Below are positions 1,584 through 21,703 of a stretch of DNA of 21,703 nucleotides, one piece after another. This DNA is from an uncultured Planctomycetia bacterium (GTDB lineage: Bacteria; Planctomycetota; MHYJ01; WSZJ01; CAZYRM01). Under the pieces are notes generated by a model that saw nothing but the letters and a program-made list of their open reading frames with translations, made no database searches and was not told the DNA's origin. The stretch is from NCBI GenBank assembly GCA_964649705.1, contig CAZYRM010000110.1, positions 1-21,703 on the forward strand, given 5' to 3'. How positions within the stretch are numbered: position 1 is the first letter of the stretch; each line of letters opens with the position of its first letter. Position numbers and translations under genes: made by a program.

Positions 1584-2314
1584 CCTCGGCGCCTGCGACC
1601 GTCGCCGACGGGGGGGCCGCGGCGACGCCTCCCGTCGTCGAGCTCCTCGACGTCCGGAAGACCTACCGCATGGGGGCCTCGGAGGTCCACGCGCTCGCGG
1701 GCGTCAGCGCCCGCTTCGAGCAGGGGAGCTACTGGGCGATCATGGGGCCCAGCGGGTCGGGCAAGAGCAGCATGCTGAACCTGCTCGGGTGCCTCGACCG
1801 CCCGACGAGCGGGACCTACCTGCTGCGGGGCCAGGACGTCAGCCGCCTGCCCGACAACGAGCTCAGCGAGCTGCGCCTCAGGCACCTGGGGTTCATCTTC
1901 CAGAGCTTCCACCTCATCCAGCAGCTCACGGTGAGGGAGAACATCGAGCTGCCGCTCTACTACCTGGGCTGGGAGCCTCACGTCGCGGCGGAGCGCGCCA
2001 CGCGGCTGGCGGAGCAGGTGGGGCTGGGGGACAGGCTGGAGCACCGCCCGAACGAGCTGTCGGGCGGGCAGCAGCAGCGCGTCGCGATCGCGAGGGCGCT
2101 GGCGAACGACCCGCCGATCCTGATGGCGGACGAGCCGACGGGGAACCTCGACTCCGCGACCGGCGAGCAGATCATGGCGCTGATCGCCCGCCTGAATAAT
2201 GAGGGGAAGACGGTCATCATGGTGACGCACGAGCCGGACATCGCGGCGCACGCCTCGTACCGGATGCACATGCGGGACGGCCGCGTGGAGAGCATCGAGG
2301 AGGGGAGGCGATGA
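1580..2314 (+). CDS. ABC transporter ATP-binding subunit, MacB/LolD-like (ATPase only, about 244 aa)
   Basis: GTG start at 1580 overlaps the upstream stop (GTGA), with a GGAGGGGAGG-like Shine-Dalgarno (SD) sequence upstream. Walker A GPSGSGKSS, Q-loop, ABC signature LSGGQQQRVAIARAL, Walker B ILMADEPTGNLD and H-loop VTHEP are all present. The N-terminal LLDVRKTYRMG is typical of the MacB/LolD family. The track's long 392..2314 ORF is only an N-terminal extension in another gene's space. Confidence 0.9.
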   Translation: MTSAPATVADGGAAATPPVVELLDVRKTYRMGASEVHALAGVSARFEQGSYWAIMGPSGSGKSSMLNLLGCLDRPTSGTYLLRGQDVSRLPDNELSELRLRHLGFIFQSFHLIQQLTVRENIELPLYYLGWEPHVAAERATRLAEQVGLGDRLEHRPNELSGGQQQRVAIARALANDPPILMADEPTGNLDSATGEQIMALIARLNNEGKTVIMVTHEPDIAAHASYRMHMRDGRVESIEEGRR

Positions 2315-2315
2315 C
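2280..2315 (+). repeat. 36-bp direct repeat, copy A (gccgcgtggagagcAtcgaggaggggaggcgatgac) covering the last 11 codons of the ATPase and its ATGA stop
   Basis: It is identical at 35 of 36 positions to 9558..9593, which sits immediately at the start of the FtsX permease gene. Both copies contain a GGAGGGGAGG SD sequence and ATGA. Confidence 0.85.
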
Positions 2316-2458
2316 CGCCTGCCGGGGAGTCTGCCACACGATTGAGGTCCGGAGGTTGCGCGACAGCCTGGAGTCTGGGACAATTCGCATCCGATTCTGG
2401 GTCCGAGGCGGTCGAGAGGCCGCCGGCCCTCGCCCGGTCGGATATCGCGGACTCCGCC

Positions 2459-4780
2459 ATGGTTCGAGTCGTCGTTGCCGGGCTGCCCGACATCGCGGTG
2501 TGGCTTGCCCGCCGCTTTCCCGGCGCGACGATGCTCGCTACGTCGACGGTCGAGGAGACACGCTCCGCACTCGCTGAGGGCGAGTGGACGGCGCTCCTCA
2601 TCGACGACCGTCTCGACGGCCAGCCGGGCAAGAGCCTGGTCGAGCGACTTCGCGCGCACCCATGCTACGCCCGTCTCCCCATCCTCTACTGTCTCGCCCA
2701 GCGGCCAGCGGGGGAGCAGGCGAAGCGGCTGGTCGCGGACCTGGGCGTCCACCGGCTCCTCGTTCAGCCCGTGGACCGGGAGGACATCGCGCGCCACATC
2801 GCCTCCCTCGCCAGGGTCCCCCTTCCCCCCACTCTCGAAGCGAGCGAGGTGGACCCGGAAGAGCGCGCCGAGTTGATCGAGATTTGGGAGAAGTACCGCG
2901 ACCAGCGCAGGGAGCGTATCGCGACGCTGGAGCTGGCGACCCTGGCGATCCGCTCGCGCACGCTCGACGCGTCGCTCGCCATGCGTGCGGAGGCCGCAGC
3001 GCACTGGCTCGCGGGCTCGGTCGGCACGTTCGGATATCTGGACGGCACACGCATCGCGCGTTCCCTCGAGCGCGTTTTCAAGGTGCTCGCCCCTTCGGGG
3101 TCGGCCGACGCGGAGCAGGTGGCCGAGCTCCTGGGGGCCCTGCAGGCGGAGCTTTCCCGTCCGCCGCTCGCCGCCACCCCGTCCGCGGCTCCCGCCGGAT
3201 CGATGACGGAGGGGGAGGATGCGCCGTACCTGCTGATCGCCGACGACGACCCGGCCGTGGGAGAGGCGCTGGCGAGGGAGGCGGGTGGGCGGGGCATGCG
3301 AACGACCGTGGCGACCGACATCGCCTCCGCGCGCGAGGCGGCGCGACGGGAACGGCCCTCGGCTGTCGTGCTCGACCTCGCCTTCCCGGGAAACACCGAG
3401 GGCGGCCTGGCCCTTCTGGCGGAGATGGGGTCGATTCAGCCGCCCATCCCGGTCCTGATCCACACTTCGTCGGACGAATTCTCGCACCGGGTCGAGACGG
3501 CGAGGCTCGGCGCGGGAGGGTTCCTGCACAAGCCGCTCTCCCCCGCGGCGGTCCTGACCGAGGTCCAGGGCCTGCTCCAGCGCGTGCGCTCGGCGCAACC
3601 GCACGTCCTCGCCGTGGACGACGACAGCGGCCTGCTGGCCGCCCTTCGCGCCCGCATCCAGGCGCAAGGCGTCCGCGTGACCACGCTCGACGACCCGCTC
3701 CGGTTCTGGGACGTGCTGGAACACGCCTCCCCCGACCTCCTCGTGCTGGACGTGGAGATGCCGCACGTCGGGGGCATCGAGCTCTGCCGCGTCGTGCGGA
3801 ACGACGCCCGATGGTCGAGGCTGCCGGTCCTTTTCCTGACGACCCACGTCGAGCCCGACGTCGTCGAGCGGCTCTTCGCCGCGGGCGCGGACGACTACGT
3901 GACGAAGCCGATCATTGGAGCGGAGCTGATCACGCGGATTCGCAACCGCCTCGACCGCGTCCGCCTGCACCGACGGCTCGCCGAGACCGACTTCCTCACC
4001 GGCGTCTCGAACCGCCAGCGCTCGGGCGAGACCCTCGAGAAGCTCCTGCGACTCGCCGAGCGGCAACGGGCGCCGTTGAGCGTGGGCCTCCTCGACCTGG
4101 ACCGCTTCAAGGACGTGAACGACACGCACGGCCACGCGGCGGGGGACGCCGTCCTCGCCCGTCTCGGGAGGCTGCTGCTGCGCACCTTCCGCGGAGAGGA
4201 CGTCGTCGCGCGGTGGGGCGGGGAGGAGTTCGTCGTCGGCATGTACGGGATGACGAGGAACGACGGCGTGGAGCGGCTCGCGCAGGCGCTCGAGGCCTGG
4301 CGCACGGAGGAATTCGCGGGGAAGGAAGATGCGAAGTTCCACTGCAGTTTCAGCGCGGGGATCTCCCAGTACCCGTGCGACGGGGGGAGCCTTGATGCGC
4401 TGTACCGGGTCGCGGACGAGGCGCTCTACCGGGCGAAGCACGAGGGACGCGACCGGATCGTACCGGCCGGACCAGGAACGGAAGCGGCGGGCGACGACGG
4501 GGCCATCGCCGTCGCCGTCGCGGACGATGCGACGGCCGCGATGGTCCGGCGTGCGCTCGTCACGCGGGGGTACCGCGTGTGGGCCGCGCGCGACCAGGAG
4601 GCGATGCCCCGCGGGAACGGAGCGCGCGTCGCCGTGATCGGCGGCGAGGGGCCGCCCGACGGGCTCGATGCGGCCGCGATCCTGCGGATCGAGAGTCCCG
4701 TGCTCCTGGCCGATGTCGTCAGGCGCGTGAGATTCGCCATGGAGGGGGACCTCCGCCGCGCGATGGCGGAGGCCCCGTAG
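2459..4780 (+). CDS. Multi-receiver response regulator with GGDEF diguanylate cyclase domain (PleD-like; REC-like, REC, REC, GGDEF, then a degenerate REC-like C-terminus)
   Basis: Receiver signatures include LLIADDDPAV…VVLDLAFPG…FLHKPL and HVLAVDDDSG…LLVLDVEMPHVGG…DYVTKPI. The GGDEF domain has the active-site motif RWGGEEFVV plus DLDRFKDVNDTHGH and YRAKHEGRDRIV. Start is placed at ATG 2459 (MVRVVVAGL). An in-frame TTG at 2342 is an alternative. No clear SD sequence is visible. Confidence 0.8.
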   Translation: MVRVVVAGLPDIAVWLARRFPGATMLATSTVEETRSALAEGEWTALLIDDRLDGQPGKSLVERLRAHPCYARLPILYCLAQRPAGEQAKRLVADLGVHRLLVQPVDREDIARHIASLARVPLPPTLEASEVDPEERAELIEIWEKYRDQRRERIATLELATLAIRSRTLDASLAMRAEAAAHWLAGSVGTFGYLDGTRIARSLERVFKVLAPSGSADAEQVAELLGALQAELSRPPLAATPSAAPAGSMTEGEDAPYLLIADDDPAVGEALAREAGGRGMRTTVATDIASAREAARRERPSAVVLDLAFPGNTEGGLALLAEMGSIQPPIPVLIHTSSDEFSHRVETARLGAGGFLHKPLSPAAVLTEVQGLLQRVRSAQPHVLAVDDDSGLLAALRARIQAQGVRVTTLDDPLRFWDVLEHASPDLLVLDVEMPHVGGIELCRVVRNDARWSRLPVLFLTTHVEPDVVERLFAAGADDYVTKPIIGAELITRIRNRLDRVRLHRRLAETDFLTGVSNRQRSGETLEKLLRLAERQRAPLSVGLLDLDRFKDVNDTHGHAAGDAVLARLGRLLLRTFRGEDVVARWGGEEFVVGMYGMTRNDGVERLAQALEAWRTEEFAGKEDAKFHCSFSAGISQYPCDGGSLDALYRVADEALYRAKHEGRDRIVPAGPGTEAAGDDGAIAVAVADDATAAMVRRALVTRGYRVWAARDQEAMPRGNGARVAVIGGEGPPDGLDAAAILRIESPVLLADVVRRVRFAMEGDLRRAMAEAP

Positions 4781-4855
4781 TCGCGCTCTCGAGGCGCACA
4801 CGTCGGCCGCCCCGCGGAAGGGCGGGGGGCCGCACACCGTGGAGGGATGGCCGAG

Positions 4856-5236
4856 ATGCCGAAGATCCTGCTTGTCGAAGACAACGAAATGAACCGCGAC
4901 ATGCTGTCGCGCCGACTCGAACGGCGCGGCTTCCAGGTCTCGATCGCCGTCGACGGCAAGGCGGCCCTCGATCTCGTCCGGACCGAGCTTCCCGACCTGG
5001 TCCTCATGGACATGAACCTCCCCGAGATCGACGGCTGGGAGGCCACCCGACGGCTCAAGGCGGACGAGGCCACGCGCCCGATCCCCGTTCTCGCGCTCAC
5101 CGCGCACGCCATGGCGGGCGACCGGGACAAGGCGCTCGCGGCGGGGGCCGACGACTACGACATCAAGCCGGTCGAGTTCGCGCGCCTCGTGGGGAAGATC
5201 GAGGCTCTCCTGAAGAGGACGCCGCCGAAGGCGTGA
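4856..5236 (+). CDS. Single-domain CheY-like response regulator receiver
   Basis: The translation reads MPKILLVEDNEMNRDML…DLVLMDMNLPEIDGWE…DYDIKPV. GGAGGG at 4841-4846 sits 9-10 nt upstream of ATG 4856. An in-frame ATG at 4847 is too close to the SD sequence to be the start. Stop is TGA at 5234-5236. Confidence 0.88.
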   Translation: MPKILLVEDNEMNRDMLSRRLERRGFQVSIAVDGKAALDLVRTELPDLVLMDMNLPEIDGWEATRRLKADEATRPIPVLALTAHAMAGDRDKALAAGADDYDIKPVEFARLVGKIEALLKRTPPKA

Positions 5237-5273
5237 TGCGCGCCGCCCCATTCGAATCCGCAGAGAGACCCGC

Positions 5274-7705
5274 ATGTTGAACGCCCTTCGCCGCGCCCTG
5301 GTCCGCCGACCGATCGTCGCCATCAGCGCGCTCGTCCTCATCGCCGGCGTCGCCATCGTCTTCCTCATGAACCGCCTGGCGACCAACCTCCTGGAGTTCA
5401 AGGCCGCCCGCGACGCGTCCCTCTACTCGACGGCGCTCGCCGAGTTCCGCACGCTCTACACGTCCGAGGTCGTCGCCACCGCCACGGCGAACGGGATCGA
5501 GGTCACCCACGACTACAAGAAGAAGAAGGGGGCCATCCCGCTGCCGGCGACGCTCAGCATGCTGCTGGGCGAAAGGATCGGGGTGCACGAGTCGGGGGCC
5601 GAGAGCCATCTCTATTCCCCGTATCCCTTCCCGTGGCGCGCCGCGGAGGGGGGCTTCGCGACGGGTTCCGCAAGGCGGCCTGGGACCATCTCAACGCGGA
5701 GCCCGAGGGCGCCTACTACCGGTTCGAGACGGTCGGCGGCAGCCCCGTGCTCCGGTACGCCACGGCTGACCGCATGCGGCAGGCGTGCGTGAACTGCCAC
5801 AACTCGCACCCCGACAGCCCGAAGACCGACTGGAAGGAGGGAGACGTCCGCGGCATCCTGGAGGTCGACCTCCCCATGGTGGCGGCGCAGACGGAGACGC
5901 GGAGGGAACTGCTCGGGACGACGGCCCTCCTGGCCGGGATGGCCGCGGTCGGGCTCGGCCTGCTCGCGCTCCTCATCGGCGGGCTGCGGAGGACGTCGAG
6001 CGACCTGGAGACGAACGTTCAGAAGCTCCGCGAAGCGCACGAGCAGCTCAGGGTCAGCTACAACACCGTCGAGGAAACGGTGCGGACGCGGACTTCCGAG
6101 CTTCAGACGAGCATGAACGACCTCGCGCGCGCGAACCAGGCGCTGGACGAGGCGCGGGAGCTTGCCGAGCAGGCGAACCGCACGAAGAGCGCCTTCCTCG
6201 CGAACATGAGCCACGAGCTGCGTACGCCCCTCAACGCGATCATCGGGTACAGCGAGATGCTTCAGGAGGAGATGTCGGGGGAGGGGCGCGACGCGCACGT
6301 CGCCGATGCGGAGAAGATCCGCGCCGCGGGACTCCACCTGCTGCGCCTGATCAACGAGGTGCTCGATCTGTCGAAGATCGAGGCGGGGAAGATGGTGCTC
6401 GCGCCGGAGACGTTTGACGTGGCGCGACTCGTCGATGACGTCGTCAGCACGGTCCGCCCCCTCGCGGAGCAGAACTCGAACCGTCTGATGGTCGAGGTCG
6501 CCCCCGACGCTGGCGACCTCTACGCAGATTTGACGCGGGTACGCCAGACGCTGTTCAACCTCCTCAGCAACGCGTGCAAGTTCACGCGGAACGGCGTGGT
6601 GACGGTGAAGGTCCGCCGGGAGAGCGCCGCGGATGGCGGCTGGATTTCGATGGCGGTCACGGACACCGGCATCGGGATGAGCCCGGAACAGGTCTCGAAG
6701 CTCTTCCAGGAGTTCCAGCAGGCGTCCTCCTCCACCGCGCGCGAATACGGCGGCACGGGATTGGGGCTCGCGATCACGCGCAGGCTCTGCACCCTGATGG
6801 GCGGGGAGGTGACCGTGACGAGCGAGCCGGGGAAGGGCTCCACGTTCACGGTGCGGCTCCCCGTCGCGCGGGAGGCCTCGCCTGCGCGAGAGGAGCCGAT
6901 CGTCGGCGCCTCACCCGCCCTTCGGCACGAAGCCGCTTCCGGACGCAACCTCGTCCTCTCGATCGACGACGAGCCATCGACCCTCGAGCTGCTCTCCCGC
7001 TTCCTGGGCAAGGAGGGCTTCACGATCGTCACGACGACCAGCGGGGTCGAGGGGGTGAACCTCGCACGGAAGCTGTCGCCGATCGCCATCACGCTCGATG
7101 TGATGATGCCCGGGACCGACGGCTGGGAGGTGCTGACGATGCTCAAGAGCGACCCGGCCACCAGGGACATCCCCGTCCTCGTGTTGAGCATTCTCGATCA
7201 GCAGCAGACGGGCTTCGCGCTCGGGGCGTCGCACTACCTCATGAAGCCGATCGACCGCGACGCGCTCGTAGGAGTGCTCGCCCCCTACCGCCGCGTCGAC
7301 GGCGCCGCAAAGGTCCTGGTCGTCGAGGACGACCCCGACAGCCGCGACCTCGCCCGGAGGATCGCGGAGCGGCAAGGCTGGAGCGTCACGGAAGCCGTGA
7401 ACGGGCGCGAGGGACTGGAGCGCATGGTCGAGGTGTCCCCCGACGTCGTCATCCTTGACCTCATGATGCCCGAGCTGGACGGGTTTGAGTTCCTGAAGGA
7501 GATGAGGCGCGAACCGAAGTGGCGCACCGTGCCGGTGATCGTCGTCACCTCGAAGGACCTGACGACGGAGGACCACATGCGCCTGAACAACGGCGTGCTG
7601 AAGATCCTCCAGAAGAGCAAGATCACGAAGGACGACCTGCTGAGCGAGATCCGCGACGCGCTGCATGGACGGATCGCGACCTCCATCCGCCCGCAGGTCT
7701 CGTGA
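5274..7705 (+). CDS. Hybrid sensor histidine kinase: N-terminal TM, periplasmic DUF3365/Tll0287-like heme-c sensor (CxxCH), TM, HisKA, HATPase_c, two REC. It is interrupted by a single-base frameshift in a G6 run (5648-5653), so it is a possible pseudogene or sequencing error
   Basis: Frame 0 (5274..) gives an N-terminal TM helix and the first half of the sensor (…[15 protein letters not shown]). Frame 2 (from 5633) continues seamlessly with [13 protein letters not shown]…YYRFE…[41 protein letters not shown]. That is followed by a TM helix, the H-box [23 protein letters not shown], a HATPase (GGTGLGLAI) and two receiver domains (ITLDVMMPG…YLMKP and [12 protein letters not shown]…). Inserting one G restores a continuous ORF. 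Confidence 0.8.
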
Positions 7706-9372
7706 CGACCGTCGGTCCCGGGCCTCGCCGCCCCGCGCCCAGCGCGACGTGGATCGCCCTGGTCGCTGCGGCCTACGTTGTCACCGGCCGGCTAGGGATC
7801 GCGGCAGCGCTCCAGCAGGTCACTTCTGTCTGGCCCCCGTCGGGTCTTGCCCTCGCCGCGGTCCTCCTCCTCGGTCCGCGCGCGGCGGCCGGGGTGGCCC
7901 TCGGCTCCTTCCTCCTCAATTTCGGCCTCACCTTCGACCGCGCCCGCCCGGTCGCGTCGGTCGCCGTCGTCGCGGCAATGGCGGTCGGGTCGACGATCGA
8001 GTGCCTGGTCGGGCGCGCGCTGCTCCTGCGCTTCGCCCGCGGCGCAGCCTGCCTCGACCGGGCCGCCGACGTCTTCCGCTTCGTGGCGCTGGCAGGGCTA
8101 CTCAGCCCGACGCTCGCAGCGACGATCGGCGCCGCTGCCCTGACCCTGGGAGGCCCGCCCTCGCACCGCGGATTTGGCCCCATCTGGTCCACCTGGTGGA
8201 TCGGGGACGCGGTCGGCGTCTTCGTCGTCGCGCCACTGCTGCTCGCCTGGGCGCGAGAGCCGCGCCTTGCGCGCGACCCCTGGCGCTGGGCGGAGGCCCT
8301 GCTCCTCGGCGGGGCGGTCCTCGCGGTCGCGCTGACTGCGTTCCGCGCCGGCTACCCCGTCGAAACGCTCGCGATCCCGTGTCTGGTCTGGGCCGCCTTC
8401 AGCTTCGGCGCTCGCGGCGCGACTCTGCTCACCGTCGTCCTCGCGGGGATCGCGGTCTGGGGAACCGTCCACGGGCACGGCACCTTCGCCCGGACGACGC
8501 TCGGCGAGTCGCTCGCCTTCCTCCAGACGTTTGTCGGCGTCGTCGCGGTCTCCTCCCTTGCCCTCTGCGCCGTGCTCGCCGAACGCGCGGCCCGGTCCGT
8601 CGACCTCCTCCGCGCCATGGAGGAGTCGACCGCCGCCCGCGTCGCGGCGGAATCGGCCAACCGCGCGAAGACCCTGTTCCTCGCCAATATGAGCCACGAG
8701 CTCCGCACGCCTCTCAACCACATCATCGGGTACGCCGAAATGCTCCAGGAGGACGCGGAGCGGGAAGGGCGCGCGGAGGCCGTGTCAGACCTGAAGAAGG
8801 TCGTCACGTCCGCGCGCTCGCTCCTGGGGGTCCTTCATTCGATCCTCGATGCCGCCCGGCTGGAGGCGGGCACGATCGACCTGACCATCGGCGAGTTCGA
8901 CCTCTCCTCGGTGGTCTACGAGGTGAGGGGCCTGACCCTCCCCCTGGCGGAGGCGAACGGCAACACGCTGGAGGTCCGGGTCGCCAACGGGATTGGCCCT
9001 GTTCGAGGTGACCGGGAGAAGGTGCGCCAGGCCCTCCTCCATGTCGTCGACAACGCGTGCAAATTCACCAGGAACGGCGCAATCTCCGTGGCGGCGTCGC
9101 GGGAGACCTGGGGAGGACGTCCCTGCCTTGCCATCGTCGTGTCGGACACGGGAATCGGGCTGGGTAAGGAGGAGATCGACGGGATCTTCCGTCCGTTCGT
9201 CCAGGTCGACGCCTCCCCCACGCGGCGCTACGGAGGCCTCGGTCTGGGCCTCTCGATCGCACGTCAGTTCCTTCAGATGCTCGACGGGGATCTATCGGTG
9301 ACAAGCGTGCCGGGCCAGGGATCGACGTTCACGCTGCGGCTGCCCGACGGCGTCCTGCCCAGCGGAACCTGA
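7702..9372 (+). CDS. MASE1-domain sensor histidine kinase (HisKA + HATPase_c)
   Basis: A GTG start at 7702 overlaps the upstream TGA (GTGA). The N-terminal polytopic membrane domain has the MASE1 signature (…[34 protein letters not shown]…). The H-box [23 protein letters not shown] is near-identical to that of the upstream kinase. The HATPase region carries DNACKFT…[12 protein letters not shown]…[11 protein letters not shown]. Stop is TGA at 9370-9372. Confidence 0.8.
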
Positions 9373-9557
9373 CGTCGTCGTGACCGCGCGAGCGGCTGCT
9401 TCGGACTCACCAGGATCCCCGCGCCCCGCGCGTCCGCTTCGGATGCGCTGCGGGGCGGGTGCGCGGATGCGGCGCTCGCAGCTTCGCGCTTGCCACGGCC
9501 GAGCGCCGCATGCTTCCATGTCGGACAGTCCGAGAGGGCGGGGACATGGCTCCTCGC

Positions 9558-9593
9558 GCCGCGTGGAGAGCGTCGAGGAGGGGAGGCGATGAC
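9558..9593 (+). repeat. 36-bp direct repeat, copy B (gccgcgtggagagcGtcgaggaggggaggcgatgac) at the start of the permease gene
   Basis: It differs from copy A by one mismatch. In one frame it encodes the orphan peptide …RVESVEEGRR*, and its ATGA supplies the ATG of the FtsX permease. Confidence 0.85.
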
Positions 9594-10857
9594 GTTGCGG
9601 AGGTGGCTCAGGGACGTCCGGCTCGGCGTGAAGACGCTGCTCCTGCACAAGCTGCGCTCCTTGCTGACGATGCTCGGCGTGGTGTTCGGCGTGGGGAGCG
9701 TGGTGGCGATGCTGGCGGTGGGGGAGGGGGCGAGCCGCGAGGCGCTGGAGCAGATCCGGAAGCTGGGGAGCCACAACGTCATCGTCACGGCAATGAAGCC
9801 GACCGAGGAGTCGACCTCGAGCACTCAGCGCATGCGGATGCTGATCTACGGGCTGACGTACGAGGACGAGGTGAGGGTCAGGGAGGGGTTCGCGTCGGCG
9901 ACGCGGGTCGTTCCGGCGAAGATCATCCGCAAGGAGGCGAGGCTCGGGGAGCGGACGCTGGAGCTCAGGGTGGTGGGGACGACGCCGGAGTGGTTCGAGC
10001 TGGTGCCTCGGCCGCTGCTGGCGGGGCGGATGCTCCTCGCGTCGGACCGCGAGCAGCGGACGAACGTGGCGGTGCTGACGGAGTACGGCGCGCGGAGGCT
10101 GCTGGCGGCCTCGAACACGCTGGGGCAGGTCCTCAGGGTGGGGACGCACGCCTTCGAGGTGGTGGGGATCGTGCGGAGCGAGGGGGGGCAGGGGAGCAGC
10201 GTGCAGACGCCGGACCAGGAGGTGGACGCCTACATCACGATCGACGTGGCGCGGGCGCGGTTCGGCGACGTGTTCACGAGGATGAGCTCGGGGTCGATGG
10301 AGCGGGAGCAGGTGGAGCTGCACCAGCTCATCGTGGAGGCGCGGTCGCTGGACGAGGTGGAGCCGATGGCCGCGGCGCTGCAGGCGATGTTCGACCGGTT
10401 CCACCCGAAGAAGGACGTGCGGATCAGCGTGCCTCTGGCGCTGCTGCGCCAGGCAGAGGCGACGAAGCGGACGTTCAACATCGTGCTGGGCTCCATCGCG
10501 GGGATCAGCCTGCTGGTGGGCGGGATCGGGATCATGAACATCATGCTGGCGAGCGTGACGGAGCGGACCAAGGAGATCGGGATCCGAAGGGCGATCGGGG
10601 CGAAGCGCAGGCAGATCGTGGGTCAGTTCCTGATCGAGACGGTGGTGCTCTCGTCGATCGGCGGTGTGATGGGGGTGGCGCTCGGGATGGCGATCCCGCG
10701 GGTGATCACATACGCGGCGGGGATGCCGACGGTGGTGACGCCGTGGAGCGTGGCGCTCGCGTTCGGCATCTCGGGGGCGGTGGGAGTCGTCTTCGGCCTG
10801 TACCCCGCGGTGCGCGCCGCGCGCCTGGACCCGATCGAGGCCCTGCGCCACGAGTAG
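9589..10857 (+). CDS. ABC transporter permease, FtsX/MacB family, with a large periplasmic domain
   Basis: ATG at 9589 is preceded by GGAGGGGAGG. The translation MTLRRWLRDVRLGVKTLLLHKLRSLLTMLGVVFGVGSVVAMLAVGEG shows the MacB N-terminal TM1. A periplasmic domain of about 200 aa follows, then three C-terminal TM helices with the FtsX motif (IMNIMLASVTERTKEIGIRRAIGAKRRQI…). The track start at 9490 is an upstream extension. Confidence 0.85.
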   Translation: MTLRRWLRDVRLGVKTLLLHKLRSLLTMLGVVFGVGSVVAMLAVGEGASREALEQIRKLGSHNVIVTAMKPTEESTSSTQRMRMLIYGLTYEDEVRVREGFASATRVVPAKIIRKEARLGERTLELRVVGTTPEWFELVPRPLLAGRMLLASDREQRTNVAVLTEYGARRLLAASNTLGQVLRVGTHAFEVVGIVRSEGGQGSSVQTPDQEVDAYITIDVARARFGDVFTRMSSGSMEREQVELHQLIVEARSLDEVEPMAAALQAMFDRFHPKKDVRISVPLALLRQAEATKRTFNIVLGSIAGISLLVGGIGIMNIMLASVTERTKEIGIRRAIGAKRRQIVGQFLIETVVLSSIGGVMGVALGMAIPRVITYAAGMPTVVTPWSVALAFGISGAVGVVFGLYPAVRAARLDPIEALRHE

Positions 10858-10865
10858 GGAGGCCT

Positions 10866-12357: not shown

Positions 12358-13380
12358 TCAGGGTGTCTGGGGAGGACCCGAGGCTACCATGCGTCCCTCC
12401 GCGCCGACCAGCTCCCTCAGGTAGTGCGTGAGGGCGAAGTCCAGCCAGCGCATCCGAGGGACTCCCTTCCCGACGTACCCCATGTGGCCGCCGAAGTCCT
12501 CGAGGTGGAGGTGCACCAGGTCCGACTTCTCCGCCGCCACGTGGTCGCGCCAGTCGATGAAGGGGTCGTCCCTGGCCGCCAGGACCACCGTGGGCCGGTC
12601 GATCTTCGCGAGGTGAGGCATGGCACTGCAACGGGCGTAGTAGTCCTCCCTGTCGCGGAATCCGCCGATCGGGGCGGTGACGAGGTCGTCGAAGCCGCGG
12701 AGCGTCGTCCAGCTCGGGATCCGGTAGCGATCCGGAATCAGCCCCGCCGCCACGCGCTCCCGCACCGCGCGGCGGCAGCGCAGGACGAATCGGAGGTCGT
12801 AGACGCGGTTGAGGCCGCGCTCGAGCAGGCGCGCCCCTTTCTCGAGGTCGATCGGAGGATTCACCGCGATGGCGAGGTCGGGCTTTTCGAACCGTCCGAT
12901 CCCCTCCCCCAGGTTCAGGAGGAGCGCGTTCCCGCTCAGGGAGAATCCCACGGCGACCAAGCGCTTGCCCGGATGGACCGCCCTCGCGTGCGCGAACACG
13001 GCGCCGAGGTCGTCGGCACGCCCGCTGTGGTAGATGCCCGCGGCGAGGCCCGCCCCGTCGCCGCAGCCGCGGTGGTTGAAGCTCCACGCCCCGTGGCCGA
13101 GCTCCTGCGCCACGGCGACGCCGCGGCGCATGTAGTCCGCGTCGTTGTCGCCTCCCAGGCCGTGGAAGAGGCAGACCAGCGTGTCGCCGCCTCCAGGGTA
13201 CTCGCGGCCCGCGAGGCGGTCCCCGTCCGGCAGGGTCAGCTCGATCCGTCGGAAGGCAGGGTTCGGCGGGGGCCCCGGGAGGGAGTTCCCGATCAGCGTC
13301 TGGAGATGGCCTCCCCGCGCCCACCACGGGGGCGTGCACGGAAGAGGGGGCGGAGCCGGGCAGAAGGCACCGCTCAGCAC
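12358..13380 (-). CDS. Alpha/beta hydrolase, YheT/ABHD-type
   Basis: The N-terminal motif PPWWARGGHLQTLIGN is typical of the YheT family. The nucleophile elbow reads VAVGFSLSGNALL. The C-terminal acid and His regions are VLAARDDPF and EDFGGHMGY. Start is chosen as GTG at 13380 (VLSGAF…), about 20 aa before GHLQT. The longest ORF extends to ATG 13527, so the start is uncertain. The stop lies 15 bp upstream of the PDZ gene, in a probable operon. Confidence 0.75.
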   Translation of the reverse strand: MLSGAFCPAPPPLPCTPPWWARGGHLQTLIGNSLPGPPPNPAFRRIELTLPDGDRLAGREYPGGGDTLVCLFHGLGGDNDADYMRRGVAVAQELGHGAWSFNHRGCGDGAGLAAGIYHSGRADDLGAVFAHARAVHPGKRLVAVGFSLSGNALLLNLGEGIGRFEKPDLAIAVNPPIDLEKGARLLERGLNRVYDLRFVLRCRRAVRERVAAGLIPDRYRIPSWTTLRGFDDLVTAPIGGFRDREDYYARCSAMPHLAKIDRPTVVLAARDDPFIDWRDHVAAEKSDLVHLHLEDFGGHMGYVGKGVPRMRWLDFALTHYLRELVGAEGRMVASGPPQTP

Positions 13381-13631
13381 GCCCGTCCGTCCGAGGCGGT
13401 CCGCGGCCGATCCGGTCGTCCCAGGGGGAGATGCCACTCGTGCCTGAACAACGCCGTGTGACTCCACTGCTCGACTTCCCGTCCCAAAGGTTGGGTCGAT
13501 CCTATCGGCAGGAGCCACCCACCGCAACGGCGGGGCGCGTCCCTTCGTTCTTGATCGCCCGCACGTGGGAGCCTATGCTCCGCAACGCTTGCCGCGAGGA
13601 CCGAGTCTCCACTGGCTGCCGCGAGTCGACG

Positions 13632-14156
13632 ATGACCGGGAATCAGGTGAAGGGCCTCCGCATCCGCGCGGCGCGTCCCTCCGACGGGAAGCCGTTCCTG
13701 GCGCTCGTCCTGGCCCTCGCGGAGTTCGAGAAGCTCCGCCCGCCGGACGCTGCCGCCCGGCGGAGGCTGCTCGCGGATGCGTTCGGGAGGCGGCCGCGAT
13801 TCAGGCTCTGGGTCGCCGAGCTCGACCGTCGCGTGGTCGGCTACGCCGTCTTCTACTTCACCTACTCCAGCTTCCTCGCCCGGCCGACGCTCTACCTGGA
13901 GGACCTCTTCGTCCATCCCGATGCCCGAGGGCGCGGGGTCGCGACTGCGGTGATGCAGGCCCTCGCTCGGGAGGCCGTGAAGCAGGGCTGCGGTCGGTTC
14001 GAGTGGACCGTGCTCGATTGGAACGAGCGAGCCATCCGGCTCTACCGCGGGCTCGGGGCGACGCAGATGAAGGAGTGGATCCTGTGTCGGGCCGCCGGCC
14101 ACGCGTTGAGGCGGATGGCGGCGCGAGGTGATCGAGCGGTCCCACGGCCTCGCTGA
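13632..14156 (+). CDS. GNAT-family N-acetyltransferase
   Basis: The translation reads MTGNQVKGLRIRAARPSDG…VVGYAVFYF…LYLEDLFVHPDARGRGVATAVM…RLYRGLGA. It carries GNAT motif A (RGRGVA). An alternative in-frame ATG at 13575 is preceded by GGGAG. Confidence 0.8.
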   Translation: MTGNQVKGLRIRAARPSDGKPFLALVLALAEFEKLRPPDAAARRRLLADAFGRRPRFRLWVAELDRRVVGYAVFYFTYSSFLARPTLYLEDLFVHPDARGRGVATAVMQALAREAVKQGCGRFEWTVLDWNERAIRLYRGLGATQMKEWILCRAAGHALRRMAARGDRAVPRPR

Positions 14157-14202
14157 GGAGGCGTGAAGCCGGGAAGAGCGAGATCGCTTTGCTCGCTGTC
14201 CG

Positions 14203-14237
14203 CTGGGAGGGGCTGCAGGGGTCACGGCCCCTCCCAG
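14203..14237. terminator. Perfect 11-bp inverted repeat hairpin (ctgggaggggc-N13-gcccctcccag) downstream of the GNAT gene and upstream of the toxin-antitoxin operon
   Basis: The stem and 13-nt loop can be read directly from the sequence. There is no U-tract, so it could be an intrinsic-terminator-like structure of a high-GC genome or an operator for the downstream toxin-antitoxin promoter. Confidence 0.35.
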
Positions 14238-14306
14238 GTCGCGCGCGCGTGGATGACCTTGGCGGCTCGCGGCCGCGGCTGTAAGATGCAGGCAAAGGAG
14301 GAGCCC

Positions 14307-14504
14307 ATGAATCCCTGGATCATAGAAGAACGCCGCCTCCTGGTGTGTCCGCCCAGCCAGAGGATTACAGTACGGATCGCGCCTGCCACCCCGACGCCGG
14401 AGTCGCGCCATCCCCTTTGTGGCGCCTGGGCGGATGAGCGCCCCGTAGAGGAGATCATCGAGTCGCTCAGGTCGCTGCGACGCCGCCTCTCGGGAGCTCG
14501 GTGA
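14307..14504 (+). CDS. Putative type II antitoxin (VapB-like partner of the downstream PIN toxin), 65 aa
   Basis: AAGGAGGAG SD sequence lies 5 nt upstream of ATG 14307. It is a small protein (MNPWIIEERRLLV…CGAWADERPVEEIIESLRSLRRR). Its stop is 7 nt before the PIN gene start. The assignment rests mainly on position and size, so it is weakly supported. Confidence 0.5.
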   Translation: MNPWIIEERRLLVCPPSQRITVRIAPATPTPESRHPLCGAWADERPVEEIIESLRSLRRRLSGAR

Positions 14505-14510
14505 ACGCCC

Positions 14511-14921
14511 TTGAAGTACCTCTGGGACACGAACACCCTAATCTACTGGCTGAACGGCGACACCCGCGTCGAGGCCCTCCGCCTGCAACGTGGGTCCGAC
14601 AACATCGGCCTGTGCTGGCCGGTTGTCCTGGAATTGGTCCTGTGCACCAGCCAGTCCACGAACGTCGAGCGCAATATCCGGAACGCTGTGGAGGTCATCG
14701 CTGCGTTCCAGCCTATCCTCGAGTCTGACGGCGCCGTGATGGACCGTTTCTGCGCCTTGCGCGCTCAATTCAAGGCGAAGGCGACCCCGAAGCCCGAGAT
14801 GGACGTGCTAATCGCCGCCCACGCCCTCGTTCACGACCTGACGCTCGTCACCTCCAACGGCGCGGACTTCGAAGGCACCCCAGACCTCCGGATCGAGGAT
14901 TGGAGGTCTAGTTCCCGATGA
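14511..14921 (+). CDS. PIN-domain toxin (VapC-like ribonuclease)
   Basis: A TTG start at 14511 gives (M)KYLWDTNTLIYWL. Conserved acidic residues match a PIN domain (DTN…, VVLELV, LVTSNGADF). Its stop overlaps the ATG of the next gene (ATGA at 14918-14921). Local GC is visibly lower than the surrounding DNA. Confidence 0.75.
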   Translation: MKYLWDTNTLIYWLNGDTRVEALRLQRGSDNIGLCWPVVLELVLCTSQSTNVERNIRNAVEVIAAFQPILESDGAVMDRFCALRAQFKAKATPKPEMDVLIAAHALVHDLTLVTSNGADFEGTPDLRIEDWRSSSR

Positions 14922-15703
14922 CAACGACTTCGCGCGAATACGAGCTCTTCACGCAGATCGTCTACCAGGCGCTGGTGCGCGAGGTCCCCGACACCCGGGT
15001 GGAGCACGACGTCCAACTCTCCGATCCCTCCGGGGTCGAGCACCAGGTGGATGTCTATCTTGAGTTCAAGATCGCCGGACACGTCTACCGGACGATCATC
15101 GAATGCAAGCAGTGGACGCGCATGGTAGACGTGGGACCTGTCACCGACTTCTACGGCCTGATCCAGTCCCTGGGCGTCGAGAAGGGGATCATGGTCTCCA
15201 AGCTGGGCTTCAGCGATCCGGCGAGGGAATTCGCGCACGCCAGGGGGATCGACCTCGTCCAACTTCGGAAGCCTAGCGAGGAGGACTTGGAGAGACGCAT
15301 CAAGAGGATGGTCGTCCGTGTCAGCTTCTACATCCCCGAAATCGCCGACGTTGCCCTCGAACCGGCGACGGCTGCAGTGTCGTCTCGGGATCTAGCCGTG
15401 AACACGGGCGAGGCCAGGATTGTGGATGCGGGGTCGGGGCGGGAGGAGACCTTGCAGTCCGTCCTGCAACGAACCCTGCCCAAGGGTTGGCCAGAGGACT
15501 GGCAGACTGTGACGATTCCTCTCGGCGCTGGAACTGTTCTGGCGGTGGGTGGCGAGCGCATACCCGTCTCCGAGCTGCGGTTCCGTGCGAGGTTTCACCG
15601 GGCCGATGAACAGGTACTCCTCGACGGGGAGGCCATCGTCCGCGCGATCCTGCGCGATGTCTTTACCGGCGAGATCCGCACGGTGCGCCGCGTCGGCGCC
15701 TGA
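14918..15703 (+). CDS. Mrr-like restriction endonuclease-fold protein (PD-(D/E)xK nuclease; N-terminal Mrr_cat domain plus an uncharacterised C-terminal domain of about 120 aa)
   Basis: The translation reads YELFTQIVYQAL…HQVDVYLEF…YRTIIECKQWTRMVDVGPVTDFYGLIQSLGVEKGIMVSKLGFSDPAREFA, with a D…E-C-K catalytic triad arrangement. It is translationally coupled to the PIN gene. Stop is TGA at 15701-15703. Confidence 0.72.
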   Translation: MTTTSREYELFTQIVYQALVREVPDTRVEHDVQLSDPSGVEHQVDVYLEFKIAGHVYRTIIECKQWTRMVDVGPVTDFYGLIQSLGVEKGIMVSKLGFSDPAREFAHARGIDLVQLRKPSEEDLERRIKRMVVRVSFYIPEIADVALEPATAAVSSRDLAVNTGEARIVDAGSGREETLQSVLQRTLPKGWPEDWQTVTIPLGAGTVLAVGGERIPVSELRFRARFHRADEQVLLDGEAIVRAILRDVFTGEIRTVRRVGA

Positions 15704-15854
15704 GATTCGCCGAGGGGGGGGACAGGTCGCAGAAGCGGCGGGAAGAGCAGGCCCAACGGGCTCCGCAGGCGAAGCGGGTCTCCGCTGTCGCGTCAGGGCC
15801 GTTCAGTTGGTCGGGGGCCCGGCGGGAAGGGTCCCGGGAAGGACGGTCGCCGCG

Positions 15855-18800
15855 TCACTTCCAGCTCAGGATCATGTCGACGAGCTTCCCCAGGACCGGC
15901 ACGTCCTTCACCGCGCCGAGGATGATGTTCTTCCTGGCCGCCTCGTTGAACGGCCCGCCGCCGACGTGCCCCTCGACGTCCTTCACGGCCGCGTCCAGCC
16001 GCTCCTGGGCACCCTGCTTCCCCTCGATCAGGTCCCCCAGCGCCTCCAGCGCGTTCGCCTCCTTGCGGAACCCCTTGTCGACGTAGTCGATCTCGGCCTG
16101 CAGCATCGCCTGGTGCAGCTTCGACATCCCGGGCGCGCTGCCGGCGATGCTGATCATCCCCTGGATCGCGTCTCCATTGTCCGCGTCCCCGCCCTTCACC
16201 CGGTCCCGCGCGTACCGCATGAGCTGGAGCACGCCGTCCAACCGGTTCAGCGACTCCGAGACCTTCTTCAGCGCGTCGGGCGTCTCGCTCTCTACGCCCG
16301 TCAGGATGCCCGAGAGCTCGCCATACTCGCCCGCCGAGCCCGCCGCGTTCGCCGTCGCCTGGACTCGGTTGCGCCACCAGGTGATCGTGTCCTTCGTCAC
16401 CGGGACGCCCGAGTCGAGCACCGCCGTCCGCGCGCCGACCAGCTCCGCGTGGATCGCCTTGAGCCTCTCCTGGTTCGCCGCGGGGTCCTTCGCGAGTTCC
16501 TCGACCTGTCGAAGCGCCTCGTCCACGCGCAGCCGGTGGACCTGCATCTCGACGGCCGCCTCCACGTGGCGGCAGGCGACCTCGGTCGCGGGGGTAGAGA
16601 CGTGCGCCCCCTTGAGCAGCGTGCGCATGACGCCGATCTGCACGCGCGCGTCGAGGTCCGTCGTCGCGGCGCGCACCTGCTCGAGGATCGCCGCCAGCTT
16701 CCCGAGGAGCTCGTCCTCGCCCGCCTTCTTCCCCTCCTCGTCAGGGACGTAGAGCGGGACGTCGATCTCGCAGACGTTGTTCCCCTCGTCCATCTCCTCC
16801 AGCTTCCCGTCGGCGTCGATCCTGGCCGAGAGCCGCGTGTCGCCCATCTCCAGCGTCCACGACATCGCGTACTTGTTCATGTACCAGTCCTGCACGACCT
16901 TCGGCCTCGCCTCGAACGTCTTCCACTCGCCGGGGCGCCATCCGTCGGCGCCGAAGAGCCTCACGTCGATGGTCCGCTTCCCCTCGCCGCTCTGCGGGTT
17001 CAAGACCGAGAAGCGGACGGAGAGCACGCCGCCCTTCTCCACGGCCTTCCCGACGTTCCGGGCGCGGAGCGTCAGCGTCGTCTCCTCGCCCGGTCTCGGC
17101 ACGGAGGGCTCCACGACGAGCTCCGCGGCGACGAGGTCGGGCTTGTCCTTCTTCGGGGGCACGAGGAACGCCAGCGGGAAGGTCATCGACGCGCGGGCCT
17201 TGTCCACCCGCAGCCGGAGCGTCACCGTTCCCTCGGCGATCTTCTCCAATGGGATCAGCTTCCCCGTCGCGAGCCCCTCGCCCTCCCCCTCGACCGGCAG
17301 GGGCGCGCTGACGACGACCCCGTCCTCGTCGAGCATCCCGACCTCCCCGGCGATCGGCGCGAAGCCGGGAATTCGGACCTCGGCCTCGGGGAAGAGGGTG
17401 GAGAGGGTGATCGAGATGGCCACGCCGCCGATGGCGCCCGCGAGGCTGCCGTCGGTGCCCTGGCTCGTGCGGTACTTCACCTGGAAAGGGAGCCTCAGGG
17501 CGTTGTCGACGATCTCTCCCTCCTTGGGGACAACCGTGCATCGGAGCGTCGCCCAGGCGGAGCGGTCGCCGATGGTCAGCACGCGCGTCTGCGCCCCCGC
17601 GATCGCGCCGAAGCGGCGGAACTCGAGGTCCTCGAGCGCGAAATCGGCGATCGGGTTTCCCGCGCGCTTCCTCAGCTTCCCCTCGCCGTCGTGGAAGTCG
17701 AGTCCCAGGCCTTCGGTGACCCAGGTCAGCGTGTCGCCGGAGGCGTCGTTCCAGAGCTCATCGGCGATGCGCGTGATCCACGCCGTGCCGCAGATCCGGC
17801 CCTCCTCGGGGGTCCGCGGGAGGCGGAAGATCAGCGACCAGATGTTGTCCTCCTCGTCCAACCCGAGGACGCGGTCACGGACGCCGCGTGCCTGGTTGGC
17901 GCGGGCCGCCATCCACGGCGGTGCGTCCTCGCCGGCGGCCTCCATCACGATGTGCGGGCCCCACTCGGACGGCGCGCGGGCCAGGATGCGGAGGCGCGTG
18001 ATCGCGGAGGAGGGGGCGCGATCGGCGCCCAGGCCGAGGAGGGGAGAGGCGAACCCGAGGCGGCCGAGGATGACGGAGGCGTGCCAGCGCGTCTCCGCGT
18101 CGTCGGAGGCGAGGGCGTCACGGAGCGCCTGGAGTGCACTTGCGTCGCCCCTCCGCGCGAGCACCCCGAGCAGGTAGAGGACCACGCCGGGTCCAGGTTT
18201 CCTTTCAAGGGCGGCCATCAAGGGGTCGGGCGTGCCCTCAATTAGCAACCTGGGCCTGGCCAGGGCCCCCTCGGTCGCCAGGCGGAAGATCGCGGCGGCC
18301 GCGGCCGAAGCGACCTCTTTGTCCTCCGAGGCCGTCAATCCGAAGAGCTTGGGAAGGTCCTCTCGCGTCGCGAGGGACTCCAGCGCCCCGAGCGCGACGT
18401 CGGGCCGCTCCGAGCGGGGGGCTTCCTCCGCGAGGACTGGCCAGGCGTCGTGCGCGCGCACGGTCTCAAGACCGGCGTACGCACCGAAGCACGAGTCGCC
18501 CCGAAGGAGTGCCACGAGGTGTTCGCGCATCGTCCCGGGGAGCGCCCGTCGGGGGGGCGGGCCGCCGAATCCAAGGGCCGAGAGCAGGCGGTGGACCTCT
18601 TCGTCGTCGTCGGGGCGGCCGGTGATCTCGGCGCGCAGCTCCTCCGCGGCCCCGACGGCGCCCTCGCTGTCGGCGATGGCGCGCTCGGCGCGCTCGAGAA
18701 CTGCGCGGCGGCGGCGCTCCTCCGCCTGGCCGGCGGCGGCGAGGAGCGGGTCGCGCACGGAGGCCTCGGCGTCCCGCGCCAGCGCCTGCAGAATCCGCGC

Positions 18801-19616
18801 CTCGAGGCCCGGGTCGCCCGCCTCGCGGGCGTCGAGGAGGGCCTGGGGCAGGACGCCGGGCGTACCGCCTGCCTGCGAGAGCAGGAGGCGCGCCTCGGAG
18901 CGTCCCGAGGCGCAGCCGCGTCCGTCGAAGAAGGCGAGCGCCTTTTCCAGCGAGGCGCGGATGGCGGTCGTGTCGGCCGCGTGCGCGTCGAGGCGGAGGC
19001 GCGCCGAGCGGAGGCGCAGCGTAGCGGGCGTCAGGGAGAGCCCGGCCTTCTCGGCCGCCTCGATGGCGGAGTCGAGCGTGTCGGCCGCGGCGACGAGGTC
19101 GAGCCCGCCCTCCTGCAGCGAGGCGGCGGCGATGGCGTCCAGCAGATCGAAGGCGATTTGGACGTCCCGCTCGAAGAAGAGCTGATCGCCGAGCCACTGG
19201 AAGTCCCGCGCCAGGACGGCCGCGTCGAGCACGTCGACGCCGTCGGGCGCGTTCCCCATCACCTCGAGCTGGACGAGGCACGCGGCCTCCAGGCCCACGT
19301 CGCCGGCCGCGGCGGCCTCCCTGGCGGCCTCGGCCATGAGGCGGCCCGCGAGCATCGGCACGTCCTTCCCCTCGGCGGCCCCCGCGGCCTCGGCCTCGTA
19401 TCGGATTTCGGCGAGGTCGCTCAGGCAGCGCGCGGCCTCGGCGTGGAGCCGGTCACGACGCGCGGCCGCGACGCACAGGCGAAGCGTCTCGGTCGCCTCC
19501 GCGACCTGATGGGCGTCTCTCTGATCGGCGGCGAGTCGTCGCTGATCGCGGATCCACGAGGCGGTGTCGGCGGAGGCGACGACGGTAGCGATGAGGAGGA
19601 CGAGGGCGGTGCGCAT
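15855..19616 (-). CDS. Large secreted protein (1253 aa): signal peptide, Ala/Leu-rich helical region, HEAT/PBS-lyase-like repeats, Ig-like CARDB-type domain, C-terminal helical/coiled-coil region
   Basis: ATG at 19616 has AGGAG about 9 nt upstream and gives the signal peptide MRTALVLLIATVVASA. The track's GTG at 19646 adds 10 aa. HEAT-like repeats are visible (…LYLLGVLARRGDASALQALRDALASDDAETRWHASVILGRLG…). A beta-rich segment reads …PDLVAAELVVEPSVPRPGEETTLTLRARNVGKA…MDEGNNVCEIDVPLYV (CARDB-like). Stop is TGA at 15855-15857. Confidence 0.65.
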   Translation of the reverse strand: MRTALVLLIATVVASADTASWIRDQRRLAADQRDAHQVAEATETLRLCVAAARRDRLHAEAARCLSDLAEIRYEAEAAGAAEGKDVPMLAGRLMAEAAREAAAAGDVGLEAACLVQLEVMGNAPDGVDVLDAAVLARDFQWLGDQLFFERDVQIAFDLLDAIAAASLQEGGLDLVAAADTLDSAIEAAEKAGLSLTPATLRLRSARLRLDAHAADTTAIRASLEKALAFFDGRGCASGRSEARLLLSQAGGTPGVLPQALLDAREAGDPGLEARILQALARDAEASVRDPLLAAAGQAEERRRRAVLERAERAIADSEGAVGAAEELRAEITGRPDDDEEVHRLLSALGFGGPPPRRALPGTMREHLVALLRGDSCFGAYAGLETVRAHDAWPVLAEEAPRSERPDVALGALESLATREDLPKLFGLTASEDKEVASAAAAAIFRLATEGALARPRLLIEGTPDPLMAALERKPGPGVVLYLLGVLARRGDASALQALRDALASDDAETRWHASVILGRLGFASPLLGLGADRAPSSAITRLRILARAPSEWGPHIVMEAAGEDAPPWMAARANQARGVRDRVLGLDEEDNIWSLIFRLPRTPEEGRICGTAWITRIADELWNDASGDTLTWVTEGLGLDFHDGEGKLRKRAGNPIADFALEDLEFRRFGAIAGAQTRVLTIGDRSAWATLRCTVVPKEGEIVDNALRLPFQVKYRTSQGTDGSLAGAIGGVAISITLSTLFPEAEVRIPGFAPIAGEVGMLDEDGVVVSAPLPVEGEGEGLATGKLIPLEKIAEGTVTLRLRVDKARASMTFPLAFLVPPKKDKPDLVAAELVVEPSVPRPGEETTLTLRARNVGKAVEKGGVLSVRFSVLNPQSGEGKRTIDVRLFGADGWRPGEWKTFEARPKVVQDWYMNKYAMSWTLEMGDTRLSARIDADGKLEEMDEGNNVCEIDVPLYVPDEEGKKAGEDELLGKLAAILEQVRAATTDLDARVQIGVMRTLLKGAHVSTPATEVACRHVEAAVEMQVHRLRVDEALRQVEELAKDPAANQERLKAIHAELVGARTAVLDSGVPVTKDTITWWRNRVQATANAAGSAGEYGELSGILTGVESETPDALKKVSESLNRLDGVLQLMRYARDRVKGGDADNGDAIQGMISIAGSAPGMSKLHQAMLQAEIDYVDKGFRKEANALEALGDLIEGKQGAQERLDAAVKDVEGHVGGGPFNEAARKNIILGAVKDVPVLGKLVDMILSWK

Positions 19617-19729
19617 GGCGGGGCTCCTGTTGAGGTCGAGGTGCACGGTCTACCGTGCGCGGGCGCGGAGGTCAACGCGAATCAGGCATCGCGCGCCTCG
19701 CCCCGATCGAGGCCCTGCGGCCGTGTCGC

Positions 19730-21586: not shown

Positions 21587-21703
21587 GGTGCGAGTCCTCC
21601 CGCACGATGATCGCACCGGGCGGTTCGCCGCGCAACGCCGGGATAGTTCTACAACGCTACTCTCCAGCCGAATCGGTGGCGGTGGCGTGCTCGTAATCGG
21701 GCT

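Follow-up and report, generated by a model that had tools for sequence, protein, structure and literature searches.

The stretch of DNA analyzed here, called the window (21,703 nt from an uncultured Planctomycetia bacterium; assembly GCA_964649705.1, contig CAZYRM010000110.1, positions 1-21,703, forward strand), carries a gene that we read as a hybrid histidine kinase with a periplasmic sCache_heme sensor domain, which would bind its heme covalently and tune a c-di-GMP relay in response to NO or redox state, and which appears to have become a pseudogene recently. We give this reading as a whole a probability of about 0.75. The family to which the sensor belongs is already known, having thousands of members and a description in 2026 under the name sCache_heme, and in that respect the gene is an ordinary find, adding one more, probably inactive, member. 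Its setting is of wider interest, as a fused heme-c sensor beside a complete Hpt-REC-GGDEF relay is a clean candidate for periplasmic control of c-di-GMP by NO or redox.

Architecture of the repaired kinase

The sensor-kinase gene occupies positions 5274-7705 and, once its frame is repaired, is predicted to be a single gene for a membrane-bound hybrid histidine kinase of 810 aa; it and all other features described below lie on the + strand. Its 5' part (5274-5653, frame 0, residues 1-126) encodes the cytoplasmic N-terminus, a first transmembrane helix (TM1) and the N-terminal half of the sCache_heme domain. The 3' part (5654-7705, frame 2) encodes the C-terminal half of that domain, a second transmembrane helix (TM2), a coiled-coil linker, HisKA, HATPase_c and two receivers, and ends with the stop codon. 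As encoded, these parts belong to different open reading frames, ORF-A (5274-5792, frame 0, closed by a TGA at 5790-5792, with a 172-aa product, P0021) and ORF-B (5633-7705, frame 2), so that the reading frame of the hybrid kinase is interrupted by one frame change, at 5648-5653. An earlier note on this DNA had stated that a frameshift cuts the kinase off from the TM helix and the N-terminal half of the sensor, and the frames of the two ORFs (0 and 2) agree with it.

By hydropathy, the repaired protein has only two hydrophobic segments, at about 8-40 and 213-239, which bracket a loop of ~183 aa and thus bear out the earlier suggestion of a periplasmic segment of roughly 190 aa between two TM helices. 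TM1 (5313-5369, residues ~14-32) is placed by hydropathy, and its region is spanned by a helix (residues 13-72) in an AlphaFold2 model; TM2 (5918-5986, residues ~216-238) is placed by hydropathy and by the model. The N-terminus preceding TM1 is Arg-rich, in agreement with the positive-inside rule. In the topology predicted for the repaired frame, and for that frame only, the sensor domain (5370-5917, residues ~33-215, spanning the frameshift) is extracytoplasmic, forming the loop that joins the two TM helices, whose cytoplasmic flanks are basic.

The remainder of the protein was delimited with Pfam. HisKA, the dimerization and phospho-acceptor domain (6185-6388, residues 305-372, 69 bits), contains the H-box SHELRTPLN, and is followed by the HATPase_c catalytic domain (6527-6868, residues 419-532, 110 bits). 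Response_reg matches in two stretches (145 bits), corresponding to receiver 1 (6947-7288, approximately residues 559-672), where a DD...D...S...K pattern is seen by inspection, and receiver 2 (7313-7651, residues 681-793). The parts of a two-receiver hybrid kinase, which is what the earlier note had called this protein, are therefore all present: the phospho-acceptor His, HATPase_c, and receivers whose acceptor Asp and acidic-pocket residues can be seen in the sequence. The kinase core also resembles the NahK/ErcS hybrid kinases in NCBIfam, though below threshold (191 bits; cutoff 400).

The predicted heme-binding domain

The predicted c-type heme site is the motif CVNCH at 5786-5800 (TGC GTG AAC TGC CAC), which lies exactly where the earlier note had placed it, in the frame of ORF 5633-7705. 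The same note had ascribed the surrounding domain to the Tll0287/DUF3365 family, and a search with the profile PF11845 (Tll0287-like, formerly DUF3365) matches residues 71-201 of the repaired protein at 52.7 bits (E 8e-14), above the gathering cutoff of 24.1. Of the unrepaired halves, only ORF-B has a match on its own (45.2 bits), ORF-A having none; this is a concrete case of annotation pipelines splitting a sensor into two “genes”, with the N-terminal half losing its domain call. The flanking residues (YYRFE...) fit the family as proposed, the homolog consensus being FYRFE...LRYATADLMR.

Conservation was read from an alignment of 120 sequences (the query and 119 homologs). C175 and N177 are present in all 120 sequences, and C172 and H176 in 119 each. 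At all the conserved positions checked, whether before or after the frameshift, the window protein has the consensus residue. From this pattern, C172 and C175 would form the thioether bonds of a c-type heme and H176 would be its proximal axial ligand. H79, M168 and H179 are nearly invariant as well, and could be sixth ligands or residues of the pocket. Within residues 1-434 the CxxCH pair supplies the only cysteines, and no other Cys is conserved in the subfamily.

The AlphaFold2 model, built from the 120-sequence alignment, has a mean pLDDT of 93.3. CVNCH sits on a short helix (170-178) between two strands (157-167 and 192-201), and the domain is a single Cache fold with an insertion, the CXXCH helix, between beta3 and beta4. 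The published description of the family (Deshpande, Xing, Gumerov, Crane and Zhulin, February 2026; bioRxiv 10.64898/2026.02.01.703092) likewise assigns its fold to Cache rather than PAS, describes the heme motif as carried by a helical insertion between beta3 and beta4, and gives the domain the name sCache_heme. The earlier note was therefore right about the heme-c family, while its label “PAS-like” gives way to this reclassification. The Foldseek matches listed for the model are WalK, DctB, the heme-c sensor GSU0935 and CitA. In the PDB, 5B82, the Tll0287 structure, was not found from sequence, either by phmmer or with a subfamily profile, and we consequently view the subfamily as divergent, with the Pfam profile and the fold securing its place in the family.

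A word-indexed protein search gave 559 homologs of the sensor. When 1.84 billion cluster representatives were searched exhaustively, 2,728 clusters matched at E<=1e-3 and 764 at E<=1e-30. Among the top matches listed, the proteins are mostly 450-1200 aa long with the domain near the N-terminus. The outputs carried by close relatives are HisKA, HisKA_2, GGDEF, GGDEF-EAL, PAS, GAF and protein kinase (Pkinase) domains; the Pseudomonas relatives are sCache_heme-GGDEF cyclases with 51-59% identity. About half of the family members stand alone and make up Cluster 1, with Cys/His ligation like that of Tll0287 and redox-like behavior (10.64898/2026.02.01.703092). The window protein has neither the axial Cys (there is no third Cys) nor the stand-alone architecture of that cluster, being fused to a kinase. 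Because it has no Cys beyond the CxxCH pair and is joined to TM helices and a signaling output, its sequence places it by both criteria in Cluster 2, the signaling-fused members, which are proposed to sense NO.

A frameshift in a G-run

The frame changes from 0 to 2 in a run of six G residues (G6) at 5648-5653. One base added to this run joins ORF-A and ORF-B colinearly, and a -1 slip on G_GGG_GGC (5648-5654) would restore the protein as well. ORF-A comprises the Arg-rich N-terminus, the TM helix and ~95 residues, after which its resemblance to the family ends, while the repaired junction, ...AAEGGLRDGF..., matches the homolog consensus in both sequence and length. Apart from this single shift, both halves of the gene are undamaged. 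In nearly all of 67 GTDB relatives the tblastn match is continuous over the position.

The 172-aa ORF-A product is recorded from seven contigs, namely the NCBI MAG contig, three from ENA (Hain_H51 R1, R2 and R3; Hainich well H51) and three from Logan (ERR3858132, SRR32696701 and SRR32696703), and all seven share the frame change. The exact 101-nt stretch around G6 is present in six retrieved contigs, which are 99.7-100% identical to the window. Since separately assembled contigs carry the identical G6 allele, an assembly accident is unlikely, and the frameshift is, judging from these sequences, a real allele, a genuine 1-nt deletion (G7 to G6) at 5648-5653. Its best reading is as a recent inactivating deletion, and the gene is most likely a recent pseudogene on an accessory cassette. 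The heme sensor as encoded is probably not made, because ORF-B alone lacks TM1 and half of the Cache fold.

No intact copy at >=90% identity was found among 5.8 billion protein clusters. A scan of GTDB genomes gave no close relative of the sensor, the best having 56-59% identity, and in the absence of a close ortholog the frameshift cannot be dated from GTDB. Neither the G6 nor the G7 allele was found in JGI metagenome contigs, the organism being absent from that collection. There are no SNPs inside the kinase gene among the seven contigs, which are essentially clonal, and for this reason they carry no dN/dS signal from which selection on the gene could be measured.

Two other explanations of the frameshift bear on whether the sensor is active, and both would leave a working gene. 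It could be functional despite the shift, through a programmed -1 ribosomal slip on G_GGG_GGC or through transcriptional or replicative slippage (phase variation) in a fraction of the molecules or cells. In favor of this, G6 is the only allele seen in the seven contigs, from several libraries, the heptamer formally fits X_XXY_YYZ, a -1 slip yields the consensus junction at the right length, and consensus residues persist in both halves. However, the 81 nt of RNA downstream of the slip site are no more stable than shuffled sequences (z = 0.32), the shift is not conserved (P0250, an uninterrupted metagenomic relative, is continuous there, as are nearly all of the GTDB relatives), six G residues are short for phase variation or transcriptional slippage, and the unchanged sequence of clonal contigs is uninformative on selection. 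We consider slippage unlikely, and find still less credible its extension, in which the G-run is a switch whose slippage gates a heme-c NO/redox sensor kinase on a recently acquired c-di-GMP cassette, although, if true, it would make the gas sensor of this uncultured planctomycete from groundwater a phase-variable or recoded one. A sequencing or assembly artifact, with the real gene intact, might be suspected at a G homopolymer in DNA of 70% GC on contigs of low coverage (5-8x per contig names), but the same allele recurs in the NCBI MAG contig, in three separate ENA replicate assemblies and in three Logan assemblies, and Illumina indel errors at G6 seldom reach the consensus. Moreover, 12 G-runs and 3 C-runs of at least six bases occur in the window, and the other genes checked are uninterrupted ORFs. 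An artifact is thus quite improbable, and inactivation by a real deletion remains the most likely explanation.

Gene neighborhood and cassette

The genes around the sensor kinase are also those of signaling proteins, and the MASE1 kinase and diguanylate cyclase that the earlier note had described as its neighbors were both found. The cyclase gene (2459-4780, 773 aa) encodes an Hpt-REC-REC-GGDEF protein that has the His motif of an Hpt domain (AAHWLAGSVGTFG) together with a GGEEF active site and an RxxD I-site; this protein is likely the target and output of the phosphorelay. The predicted link to c-di-GMP is in this way more specific than the earlier note had it, as the GGDEF protein carries the Hpt domain and two receivers, which a hybrid kinase without Hpt needs. 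A single-domain response regulator (4856-5236, 126 aa) follows the GGDEF gene and lies immediately upstream of the sensor kinase. Downstream, the MASE1 histidine kinase gene (7702-9372, 556 aa) begins with a GTG (7702-7704) on the stop codon of the sensor kinase (7703-7705), a 4-nt overlap at 7702-7705, and the two kinases have nearly identical H-boxes. The almost identical H-boxes and the gene overlap suggest that the MASE1 kinase is a second input to the same relay.

The four genes form a 7.28-kb signaling cassette bounded by a direct repeat of 36 bp; its two copies are identical at 35/36 positions, and no such repeat is expected by chance. The left copy (2280-2315) consists of the 3' end of an ABC ATPase gene and an ATGA junction, and the right copy (9558-9593) supplies the RBS and ATG of a MacB permease gene. 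The cassette is inserted exactly at the ATGA in which the ATPase stop and the permease start overlap, and the repeat re-creates the start of the permease gene. The nearest related loci (L074 and L075), with 82-89% nucleotide identity, have the gene order of the window (OEP, MFP, ABC ATPase, MacB permease, DUF6288/PDZ, abhydrolase, giant protein) and are without 2316-9557, which is the four signaling genes; they are also without 13377-15856 (GNAT, PIN and Mrr-like genes). In the 67 related loci the four-gene cassette is not kept as a block, and only the upstream REC gene recurs, in the closest relative (L007). The G+C content of the cassette equals that of its flanks. The named best matches of the ABC ATPase are in Planctomycetota/Phycisphaerae.

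The heme sensor kinase, then, belongs to an accessory module, a setting that fits relaxed selection on the sensor gene and its decay. More generally, the locus illustrates that such sensor modules travel as accessory cassettes from one genome to another among close relatives.

Proposed signal and relay

For an intact protein, we would expect export of the apo-domain and attachment of heme at C172 and C175 by the cytochrome-c maturation system of the cell, with H176 as the proximal ligand; no cytochrome-c maturation genes are encoded within the 21.7-kb window. The signal would be a small diatomic ligand on the ferrous heme, most likely NO, or a change in the redox state of the heme, and would be passed as a change in conformation through TM2 and the coiled coil, altering how the HisKA His is autophosphorylated. 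The receiver(s) within the kinase might then take up the phosphoryl group and hand it to the Hpt domain of the Hpt-REC-REC-GGDEF protein, from which it would reach a receiver of that protein, setting the level of c-di-GMP synthesis. Such a His-Asp-His-Asp relay would be the natural wiring, because the kinase has two receivers and no Hpt domain whereas its neighbor carries one. The MASE1 kinase and the single-domain REC protein probably feed the same relay.

Whether the domain would bind heme at all, and what that heme would sense, are questions with different degrees of certainty. Mononucleotide shuffles of the window contain a mean of 0.86 CxxCH motifs in six frames, and CVNCH is the one actually present, so the bare motif is not significant by itself and could in principle be a chance occurrence in a domain without heme. 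It derives its significance instead from its context, that is, the family match and the conserved position; it is near-invariant in the family alignment at the position that defines the family, and CXXCH is kept in 99% of more than 5,000 InterPro and about 20,000 NR family sequences (10.64898/2026.02.01.703092). A chance motif is accordingly hardly credible. The choice of ligand is closer. The single fused member that has been studied, the P. azotoformans TM-sCache_heme-TM-HAMP receptor, is without an axial Cys, releases NO with a koff of 6e-4 s-1, comparable to H-NOX and NosP, and autoxidizes with no stable O2 complex (10.64898/2026.02.01.703092); phosphorylation by its bound Ser/Thr kinase is altered more by NO than by redox state (10.64898/2026.05.25.727664). 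The window protein, with only two Cys in its periplasmic domain, likewise has no axial Cys, and together these observations favor NO over redox. We therefore take NO to be the best-supported candidate ligand, at roughly even odds, and the description “gas (NO) sensor” to be somewhat better supported than “redox sensor”. A heme-c sensor of redox state (Fe2+/Fe3+), of O2 or of some other ligand is less likely, yet it has several points in its favor. Redox roles have been assigned to the stand-alone Tll0287 and to a P. putida protein (10.64898/2026.02.01.703092), GSU0582 and GSU0935 bind NO but may be redox sensors (CHH preprint, 10.64898/2026.05.25.727664), H79, M168 or H179 could provide a stable sixth ligand, and the authors of the work on the one fused member allow that another heme ligand is its true signal (10.64898/2026.05.25.727664).

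Relation to characterized systems

The founding structure of PF11845/DUF3365 is that of Tll0287 from Thermosynechococcus elongatus (PDB 5B82), which has only 13% identity to the window subfamily. Tll0287 is soluble, stands alone and has Cys and His as axial ligands, whereas the window domain has no third Cys, is flanked by two TM helices and is fused to a hybrid kinase. Structurally characterized members with a fused output are the periplasmic single-heme-c chemoreceptor domains of Geobacter sulfurreducens GSU0582 and GSU0935 (PDB 3B47 and 3B42), which the 2026 analysis counts in this family. These are joined to MCP signaling domains rather than to a kinase, and the structural match of the window domain to GSU0935 is weak (Foldseek E 1e-2, TM 0.24-0.48).

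Another counterpart is the P. azotoformans Cache_heme-HAMP (CHH) receptor (WP_033902098/A0A127HZT3), a Cluster 2 NO binder, which shares with the window protein the domain family, the TM-sCache_heme-TM-signaling topology and the missing axial Cys. Its output is a HAMP domain with a bound Ser/Thr kinase, while that of the window protein is HisKA-HATPase-REC-REC, and it differs also from the window gene in that the latter is frameshifted. NO binding has been shown for the receptor, and by likeness of architecture and Cys content may be expected of the window protein. The H-NOX/HnoK and NosP/NahK-HptB systems provide a functional analogy only, in which a heme gas sensor acts on a (hybrid) histidine kinase and, through an Hpt/REC relay, on c-di-GMP enzymes; unlike the window sensor, H-NOX and NosP have unrelated folds, hold heme b non-covalently, are cytoplasmic and are usually separate proteins from the kinase. 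An intact protein of this architecture is the metagenomic P0250 (801 aa), which has the same domain order as the window kinase (sCache_heme-HisKA-HATPase-REC-REC) and aligns with the repaired protein at 50% identity over 805 aligned positions, colinearly across the frameshift site.

Organization of the signalling cassette

The four signalling genes lie in a single 7.28-kb block (2280-9593 of the window, including its terminal repeats), which encodes, in order, an Hpt-REC-REC-GGDEF protein, a REC protein, the sCache_heme hybrid histidine kinase and a MASE1 kinase. The nearest relatives, L074 and L075 (82-89% nucleotide identity), do not have the four-gene block. Its point of insertion is exactly the ATGA sequence that the ABC ATPase and MacB permease genes share where they overlap, and the cassette is flanked there by a 36-bp direct repeat (2280-2315 and 9558-9593), which is a duplicate of the 3' end of the ATPase gene together with the start of the permease gene. 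The G+C content of the cassette is the same as that of its flanks, and its annotated genes include neither a transposase nor an integrase.

The MASE1 kinase gene (7702-9372) begins 4 nt before the stop codon of the sensor-kinase gene, and the H-box regions of the two proteins (25 residues each; in the sensor kinase within the HisKA domain, 6185-6388) are nearly identical. This near-identity suggests that the two are paralogous kinases with common partners.

Within the sensor-kinase gene, gene callers treat the N-terminal fragment (5274-5792) as a 172-aa protein of its own, without a Pfam match, and place the start of the kinase at 5747. TM1 and the N-terminal half of the sensor domain are therefore missing from the automated annotation; this loss applies to ENA contigs with a complete downstream gene call. 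In the closest GTDB relative, from a Nitrospinota MAG (L007, 9743-12539), the sensor ORF stops approximately 15 residues past TM2, and a kinase core that shares 41% identity with the one in the window carries on from 11070. This break may be another frameshift, or it may be a long-read homopolymer error in the L007 assembly.

Other features of the window

One contig, L003, is identical to the window over 9.4 kb except for one SNP, and then diverges where the MacB permease gene nears its 3' end (10587-10858), with 25 mismatches in 270 bp. These are spaced mostly by multiples of 3 nt, a pattern like that of codon positions. Recombination between strains may account for the stretch, or the assembly may have joined a paralogue there.

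A 628-aa protein that combines an SPFH/Band-7 domain with a Ser/Thr protein kinase in one chain (19730-21616, minus strand) adjoins a 1263-aa protein (15855-19646, minus strand) whose only matches, to HEAT and CARDB, are weak. Both are kept in the relatives.

A second block, at 13377-15856, is missing from L074 and L075. It encodes a GNAT acetyltransferase (13431-14156), a PIN-domain protein (14511-14921) and an Mrr_cat restriction-endonuclease-like protein (14918-15703). With a reduced G+C content (0.62-0.66 versus ∼0.70), the block has the look of a small island of defence/toxin genes.
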